From NCBI RefSeq assembly GCF_003334355.1, contig NZ_QOWP01000034.1: DNA of 37,733 nucleotides, one strand, 5' to 3'. The stretch comes from Escherichia coli. Lineage in GTDB: Bacteria > Pseudomonadota > Gammaproteobacteria > Enterobacterales > Enterobacteriaceae. Positions within the stretch are counted from its first letter, which is position 1; the number at the start of each line of letters is the position of its first letter. Below, in pieces: positions 23,233 through 23,309 of the stretch. The position numbers were made by a program, and so were the translations under genes. The notes under the pieces are model-generated. The model was not told the DNA's origin, did no database searches, and saw nothing but the letters and a program-made list of their open reading frames with translations.

Positions 23233-23246
23233 TTGCGCGAAATCAA
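23233..23246 (-). promoter_or_regulatory. FNR-like site (TTGCG-N4-ATCAA) in the fdnG promoter
   Basis: Partial match to TTGAT-N4-ATCAA, centred about 72 bp upstream of the fdnG ATG. Consistent with the known anaerobic FNR activation of fdnGHI. Confidence 0.5.
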
Positions 23247-23293
23247 AAAGAACACGTGTTTGCCACAAAATAATCCGCCTGCGCAAATTGACC

Positions 23294-23309
23294 TACCTCA
23301 ATAGCGGTA
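23294..23309 (-). promoter_or_regulatory. NarL 7-2-7 heptamer pair (TACCTCA-AT-AGCGGTA)
   Basis: Inverted pair of TACYYMT-type heptamers with 2-bp spacing, about 60 bp upstream of the FNR-like site. This matches the established fdnG nitrate-response architecture. Confidence 0.55.

Follow-up and report, generated by a model that had tools for sequence, protein, structure and literature searches.

FNR and NarL sites between fdnG and yddG in an Escherichia coli contig coincide with the curated sites of the fdnGHI control region

The 231 bp that separate the divergent genes fdnG and yddG of Escherichia coli contain motifs that look like binding sites for FNR and NarL, and an initial annotation made from the sequence had ascribed them to the fdnG promoter. 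Is this spacer the control region through which oxygen and nitrate act on fdnGHI, and which of the candidate sites in it belong to that promoter? We addressed these questions in a stretch of 37,733 nucleotides, hereafter the window (NCBI RefSeq assembly GCF_003334355.1, contig NZ_QOWP01000034.1). The window is E. coli chromosome: the 351-bp stretch around the motifs is 100% identical to O157:H7 strains and was found in 5414 of the 5426 complete E. coli genomes, annotated as fdnG / yddG. The spacer itself is 99% identical to MG1655, and the three single-base differences from K-12 all fall outside the curated 14-bp FNR sites and 7-bp NarL heptamers; on sequence grounds, no functional change is to be expected from them. 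The features that define the locus are the following.

23168, minus strand: ATG of fdnG
23400, plus strand: ATG of yddG, divergent from fdnG
23169-23399: yddG-fdnG spacer, 231 bp, holding both motifs
22528-22586, minus strand: SECIS_3 element, 84 bits, beginning at the in-frame TGA of fdnG and running just downstream of it

A mechanical list of open reading frames shows fdnG as two ORFs, because the in-frame TGA at 22581-22583 is a selenocysteine codon according to the SECIS_3 match. This match confirms that the gene downstream of the promoter is the selenoprotein gene fdnG.

Both motifs that had been described, TTGCG-N4-ATCAA at 23233-23246 (with cgaa as the four intervening bases) and the inverted heptamers TACCTCA-AT-AGCGGTA at 23294-23309, occur at exactly these coordinates, within the intergenic region that fdnG shares with yddG. 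The RegulonDB/CoryneRegNet lists in the supplements of PMC2718512 hold two FNR sites for b1474, TTGATTTCGCGCAA and TTGAGGTAGGTCAA, together with four NarL heptamers (CACCACT, TACCGCT, TACCTCA and TAATCCG), of which TACCGCT and TACCTCA are flagged as the 7-2-7 pair 3a/3b; the main text of that paper counts fdnG among four genes with a reported 7-2-7 site. The FNR site proposed to lie near -42 of fdnG is identical to the first of the two curated FNR sites, published at -42.5, and the heptamers proposed near -100 are the curated 7-2-7 pair. Missing from the initial annotation were the second, better-matching FNR site TTGAGGTAGGTCAA and the curated NarL heptamers at -77 and -124, so that its interpretation is supported and was incomplete rather than wrong. 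The full set of curated sites in the spacer, with positions relative to the fdnG start discussed below, is as follows.

23233-23246, minus strand: promoter-proximal FNR site, TTGATTTCGCGCAA on the fdnG strand; centre 23239.5, corresponding to -42.5, a class II position
23288-23301, minus strand: second FNR site, TTGAGGTAGGTCAA, curated for b1474; centre -97.5, overlapping the -100 NarL heptamer
23294-23309, minus strand: NarL/NarP 7-2-7 site, reading TACCGCT-AT-TGAGGTA along the fdnG strand; centred at -104.5, with its heptamers at -109 and -100
23271-23277, plus strand: curated NarL heptamer TAATCCG; centre -77, 4.2 bits
23318-23324, plus strand: curated NarL heptamer CACCACT; centre -124, a weak match of 1.9 bits

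The arrangement of these sites also agrees with the literature. Published work on fdnG places FNR at -42.5 and NarL at -77, -100, -109 and -124 (PMC3349551), and the distances from the FNR centre to the four heptamers in the window (34.5, 57.5, 66.5 and 81.5 bp) equal all four published spacings. When the FNR centre at 23239.5 is set to the published -42.5, +1 falls on 23197, and the heptamer centres at 23274, 23297, 23306 and 23321 then come to lie at exactly -77, -100, -109 and -124. All five published positions thus fit a single start, as expected from the earlier proposal that the spacings follow the established fdnG architecture. This start, like the functional assignment of the sites, draws on secondary citations, and it is given here with the putative -10 element of the promoter.

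23197, minus strand: putative fdnG transcription start, an A 29 nt before the ATG, derived from the published FNR position
23206-23214, minus strand: putative fdnG extended -10 element, TGTTAGTTT, at -17 to -9, with column conservation of at least 90% among the 61 spacers compared below

The element TGTTAGTTT lies 25.5 to 33.5 bp downstream of the -42.5 FNR centre (23214 to 23206 in the window). A simple sigma-70 scan of the spacer found no canonical promoter, a result that an activator-dependent promoter would be expected to give and that does not argue against one.

How well do the sites match their regulators? We scored the window with two matrices from which the fdnG sites were excluded: an FNR position weight matrix (PWM) trained on the remaining 62 ChIP-bound sites in Table S6 of Myers 2013, and a NarL matrix built from the remaining 68 curated heptamers. 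The -42.5 site scored 10.5 bits and ranked 8 of 37,720 positions. Every one of the 62 ChIP-bound training sites scored higher, and the site also falls short of the threshold that Myers 2013 applied genome-wide. It agrees with the consensus TTGAT-N4-ATCAA at 8 of 10 positions, with one mismatch in the TTGA-N6-TCAA core, and TTGATTTCGCGCAA is one base away from the ChIP-bound hcp site TTGATTTAGCGCAA; it is a weak but valid FNR match. Of 5413 E. coli records, 5220 carry the same 46-bp stretch across the -10 element and this site. Each heptamer of TACCGCT-AT-TGAGGTA matches TACYYMT at 6 of 7 positions, the two being inverted and 2 bp apart, and the composite score of the pair, 12.2 bits, ranked 2 of 37,718, with about 0.003 such matches expected per 231-bp spacer. 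Across the NarL sites and the upstream FNR site, 5016 of 5411 E. coli records share the same 43 bp. The bare consensus sequences, with up to two mismatches allowed, gave 33 matches in the window for TTGATN4ATCAA (21.3 ± 4.6 expected) and 2 for TACYYMT-NN-AKRRGTA (1.93 expected); by this measure alone, neither motif stands out from chance. A perfect NarL consensus heptamer, TACCCCT, is also present on the minus strand at 23186-23192, in the fdnG leader from +6 to +12 (9.1 bits); it is absent from the curated list, is not conserved outside Escherichia and is probably a chance single heptamer.

We then compared the spacer across related genera. A scan anchored on YddG, with one genome per species, yielded 80 loci, 62 of them with fdnG divergently upstream, and these gave 61 distinct spacers from Escherichia, Citrobacter, Salmonella, Enterobacter, Klebsiella, Raoultella, Kluyvera, Leclercia, Lelliottia, Kosakonia, Phytobacter and others. 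The FNR core TTGATTTnnCGCAA, or its one variant TTGATTTnnCTCAA, was present in all 61 of these Enterobacteriaceae spacers, followed in all genera by TGTTAGTTT at a fixed distance, even where the leader has insertions. In 56 cases the best 7-2-7 match anywhere in the spacer had its centre 62 bp upstream of that of the FNR site, and in 3 cases 61 bp upstream, which makes 59 of the 61 spacers. At the same time, the heptamer sequences diverge widely (TAATCAA-AA-AGGGGTA in Enterobacter and TACTCCC-TT-ATGGGTA in Citrobacter). It is the 7-2-7 arrangement, and not the sequence of the heptamers, that is under selective constraint, as the constant spacing amid sequence turnover shows. NarL-like heptamers occupy the -109 and -100 positions in 95% of the spacers, compared with 5% for -124 and 11% for -77; we therefore rejected the -77 and -124 heptamers as conserved elements, since they are not kept outside Escherichia. 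Likewise, the -97.5 FNR site was seen in Escherichia loci only. The 62-bp spacing between the FNR site and the 7-2-7 pair as a feature conserved across genera, and the restriction of the -77 and -124 heptamers and of the -97.5 FNR site to Escherichia, are modest additions to what is known of this promoter.

The same alignment contained two features of another kind. A block at 23259-23275 (-78 to -62), which reads GATTATTTTGTGGCAAA in the window and GAyTATTwAGgGGGcG in other genera, is strongly conserved across genera in a way that the FNR and NarL matrices do not explain, and it partially overlaps the -77 heptamer. In several Citrobacter species, Salmonella enterica arizonae and diarizonae, Phytobacter and Enterobacter wuhouensis (loci L009, L020, L024, L025, L040 and L058), the stretch from the conserved fdnG -10 element to the ATG is lengthened by insertions of about 50-145 nt.

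Occupancy of the spacer by FNR in living cells was taken from two published datasets. For yddG/fdnG, Myers 2013 lists a peak of FNR ChIP-seq centred at 1545309 (U00096.2) and assigns it to fdnG. Our coordinate conversion was checked with two of their predicted sites, and both mapped exactly (1545292 to 23288-23301, and 1541120 at narU/narZ to 27460-27473). In Federowicz 2014, the signal-to-noise of FNR ChIP-chip at this locus was 6.2 during fermentation and 106.7 with nitrate; the peaks are intervals of 275 bp and 1.9 kb and too coarse for single sites. The same study scored fdnGHI as activated and yddG as not differentially expressed. ChIP therefore confirms that FNR occupies the yddG/fdnG spacer in vivo, with a resolution that covers the spacer and not the individual site, and none of these peaks places FNR elsewhere.

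Taken together, we consider it very probable that this is the promoter of the E. coli fdnGHI operon, which encodes formate dehydrogenase-N, and that its activity depends on nitrate and anaerobiosis. In the absence of oxygen, an FNR dimer would bind the weak half-consensus site TTGATTTCGCGCAA at -42.5, beside the extended -10 element, and from there would recruit RNA polymerase as a class II activator. With nitrate present, a dimer of phosphorylated NarL would bind TACCGCT-AT-TGAGGTA at -104.5 and, in E. coli, also the flanking single heptamers at -124 and -77, and this binding would strongly boost FNR-dependent transcription; NarP would be limited to the 7-2-7 pair. What the present comparison shows is that the sequences equal curated sites, where they lie, that FNR occupies the spacer in vivo and that the distance from FNR site to 7-2-7 pair is conserved; the protein contacts and the activation step are those established for class II activation by FNR and for binding of NarL to 7-2-7 sites. 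Li and Stewart reportedly found in 1992 that anaerobic induction is lost on mutation of the fdnG FNR site, and Li and co-workers in 1994 and Darwin and co-workers in 1996 and 1997 are said to have described a NarL-phosphate footprint and heptamer-dependent nitrate induction at fdnG.

The strongest FNR match in the spacer is nevertheless a different one, and this raises the question of whether the operative FNR site might be the upstream one at 23288-23301. This site could either replace the one at -42.5 or form a tandem pair with it, in which upstream FNR would compete with NarL/NarP for the -100 heptamer and so modulate the promoter. With 15.8 bits, compared with 10.5 for the -42.5 site, TTGAGGTAGGTCAA is the top FNR match of the whole window (rank 1 of 37,720). 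In Myers 2013 Table S6 it is the only site in the spacer that passes the genome-wide threshold, and it is flagged there at a ChIP-seq peak; the centre of the peak is 10.5 bp away from TTGAGGTAGGTCAA, compared with 44.5 bp for the -42.5 site. It is also curated as a b1474 FNR site and hence is not new. The two sites are 55 bp apart, much like the yfiD pair with its 53 bp in Myers 2013 Table S6; for yfiD, Green et al. 1998 announce in their title a down-regulation from -93.5. However, peak position does not separate the two sites: in Myers 2013 the median offset between peak and motif is 23.5 bp, and in 32% of cases the offset reaches 44.5 bp or more. We therefore rejected the peak centre as an arbiter between them. 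A centre at -97.5 is too far upstream for activation on its own where the -35 is poor, and the local NarL heptamer sequence might by itself account for the match. Furthermore, no spacer outside Escherichia has the -97.5 site, while all spacers have the -42.5 site; the upstream site can therefore not be the ancestral activating site, and its phylogenetic distribution leaves an operative or modulating role possible only as an Escherichia-specific add-on. We found no report in the literature of a down-regulating role for the fdnG -97.5 FNR site. On balance, an operative or modulating upstream site appears unlikely. For the assignment of ChIP peaks to motifs by score, it matters that the class II site is outscored by another FNR match in the same spacer.

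A more specific, and in our judgement quite unlikely, scheme would have the -100 NarL heptamer evolve, in Escherichia only, to double as the high-affinity FNR site TTGAGGTAGGTCAA. Without nitrate, FNR would then sit mainly there and leave the promoter poised or damped; with nitrate, phosphorylated NarL would displace it and thereby free productive complexes of FNR and RNA polymerase at -42.5. The first part would agree with the position of the ChIP-seq peak centre, obtained under glucose fermentation, and the second with the 17-fold higher FNR ChIP signal in nitrate. If true, this would amount to a lineage-specific competitive switch on top of an ancestral co-activation design.

The NarL sites, the upstream FNR site or both could also serve the divergent yddG promoter, instead of fdnG or besides it. 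A candidate element for this promoter is found on the other side of the spacer.

23348-23356, plus strand: predicted yddG extended -10 element, TGcTATAAA, a conserved block in the 61-spacer alignment

This element, probably the yddG promoter, predicts a yddG start near 23363, which would put the centre of the 7-2-7 pair at about -61.5, a class I-like distance, and the distance from the sites to the yddG ATG is nearly constant across genera (151-160 bp). Against such a role, yddG was scored as not differentially expressed, whereas fdnGHI was scored as activated (Federowicz 2014), Myers 2013 assigns the FNR peak to fdnG, and in all genera the FNR site keeps a fixed position relative to the fdnG extended -10 element. 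We therefore regard control of yddG by these sites as very unlikely. As a separate observation, Federowicz 2014 (Table S5) reports an ArcA motif, TAGCATTTTTTTAAC, beneath an ArcA ChIP-chip peak. In the window this motif lies at 23338-23352 and shares bases with TGcTATAAA, which suggests that ArcA may control yddG.

That the motifs are functionless chance matches, as might be argued from consensus-level counts in the window that equal the shuffled expectation, has next to no probability and is effectively refuted by curation and conservation: the motifs stand above chance because of their joint position, with all five published positions fitting one start, their exact identity with curated, experimentally derived sites, and a spacing kept in 59 of 61 spacers despite sequence turnover, and FNR occupies the spacer in ChIP.

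The fdnGHI promoter reading also places the window among systems that are already known. The E. coli K-12 fdnGHI control region is the same locus, with curated FNR and NarL sites that are identical base for base and lie at the same positions; the promoter and its sites are thus already known, and identifying them again adds no new biology. This K-12 region is said to have been studied by Li and Stewart in 1992, by Li, Kustu and Stewart in 1994, by Darwin and co-workers in 1996 and 1997 and by Wang and Gunsalus in 2003. What the window does illustrate is that a textbook dual-signal promoter, which senses oxygen via FNR and nitrate via NarL, can be recovered from sequence alone with base-pair accuracy. 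The narG promoter resembles fdnG in having a class II FNR site (at -41.5 in narG) and nitrate induction by NarL bound far upstream, in narG at distal heptamers. It differs in that it lacks a 7-2-7 pair and requires IHF, whereas fdnG has its 7-2-7 pair at -104.5 and no curated IHF site; in Myers 2013 Table S6, no overlap with IHF, H-NS or Fis is marked for the fdnG site. Like fdnG, yfiD has two FNR sites about 53-55 bp apart, one in a class II position and one near -95 (-40.5 and -93.5 in yfiD). What sets fdnG apart from yfiD is an upstream site that matches better than the downstream one, shares bases with a NarL heptamer and is confined to Escherichia.

Two further matches in the window lie in narU. 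The highest-scoring 7-2-7-like sequence of all, TACTCCT-TT-TGGGATA at 26883-26898, falls in the narU coding region and was dismissed as a meaningful site, being at chance level (2 found, 1.9 expected). The second-best FNR match in the window, GTGACGTTGATCAA at 27460-27473, falls within narU, on the upstream side of narZ. It corresponds to the predicted site 1541120 of Myers 2013, for which there is no ChIP peak and which is overlapped by enrichment of H-NS and Fis. Between yddG and narU, the segment 24282-26500 carries a yddL porin remnant and a gene for a leucine-rich-repeat protein. This segment is variable among E. coli, with only 4104 of 5426 genomes covering at least 80% of it, and in O157:H7 the equivalent position has another arrangement, with ompC-like and espR1 genes.
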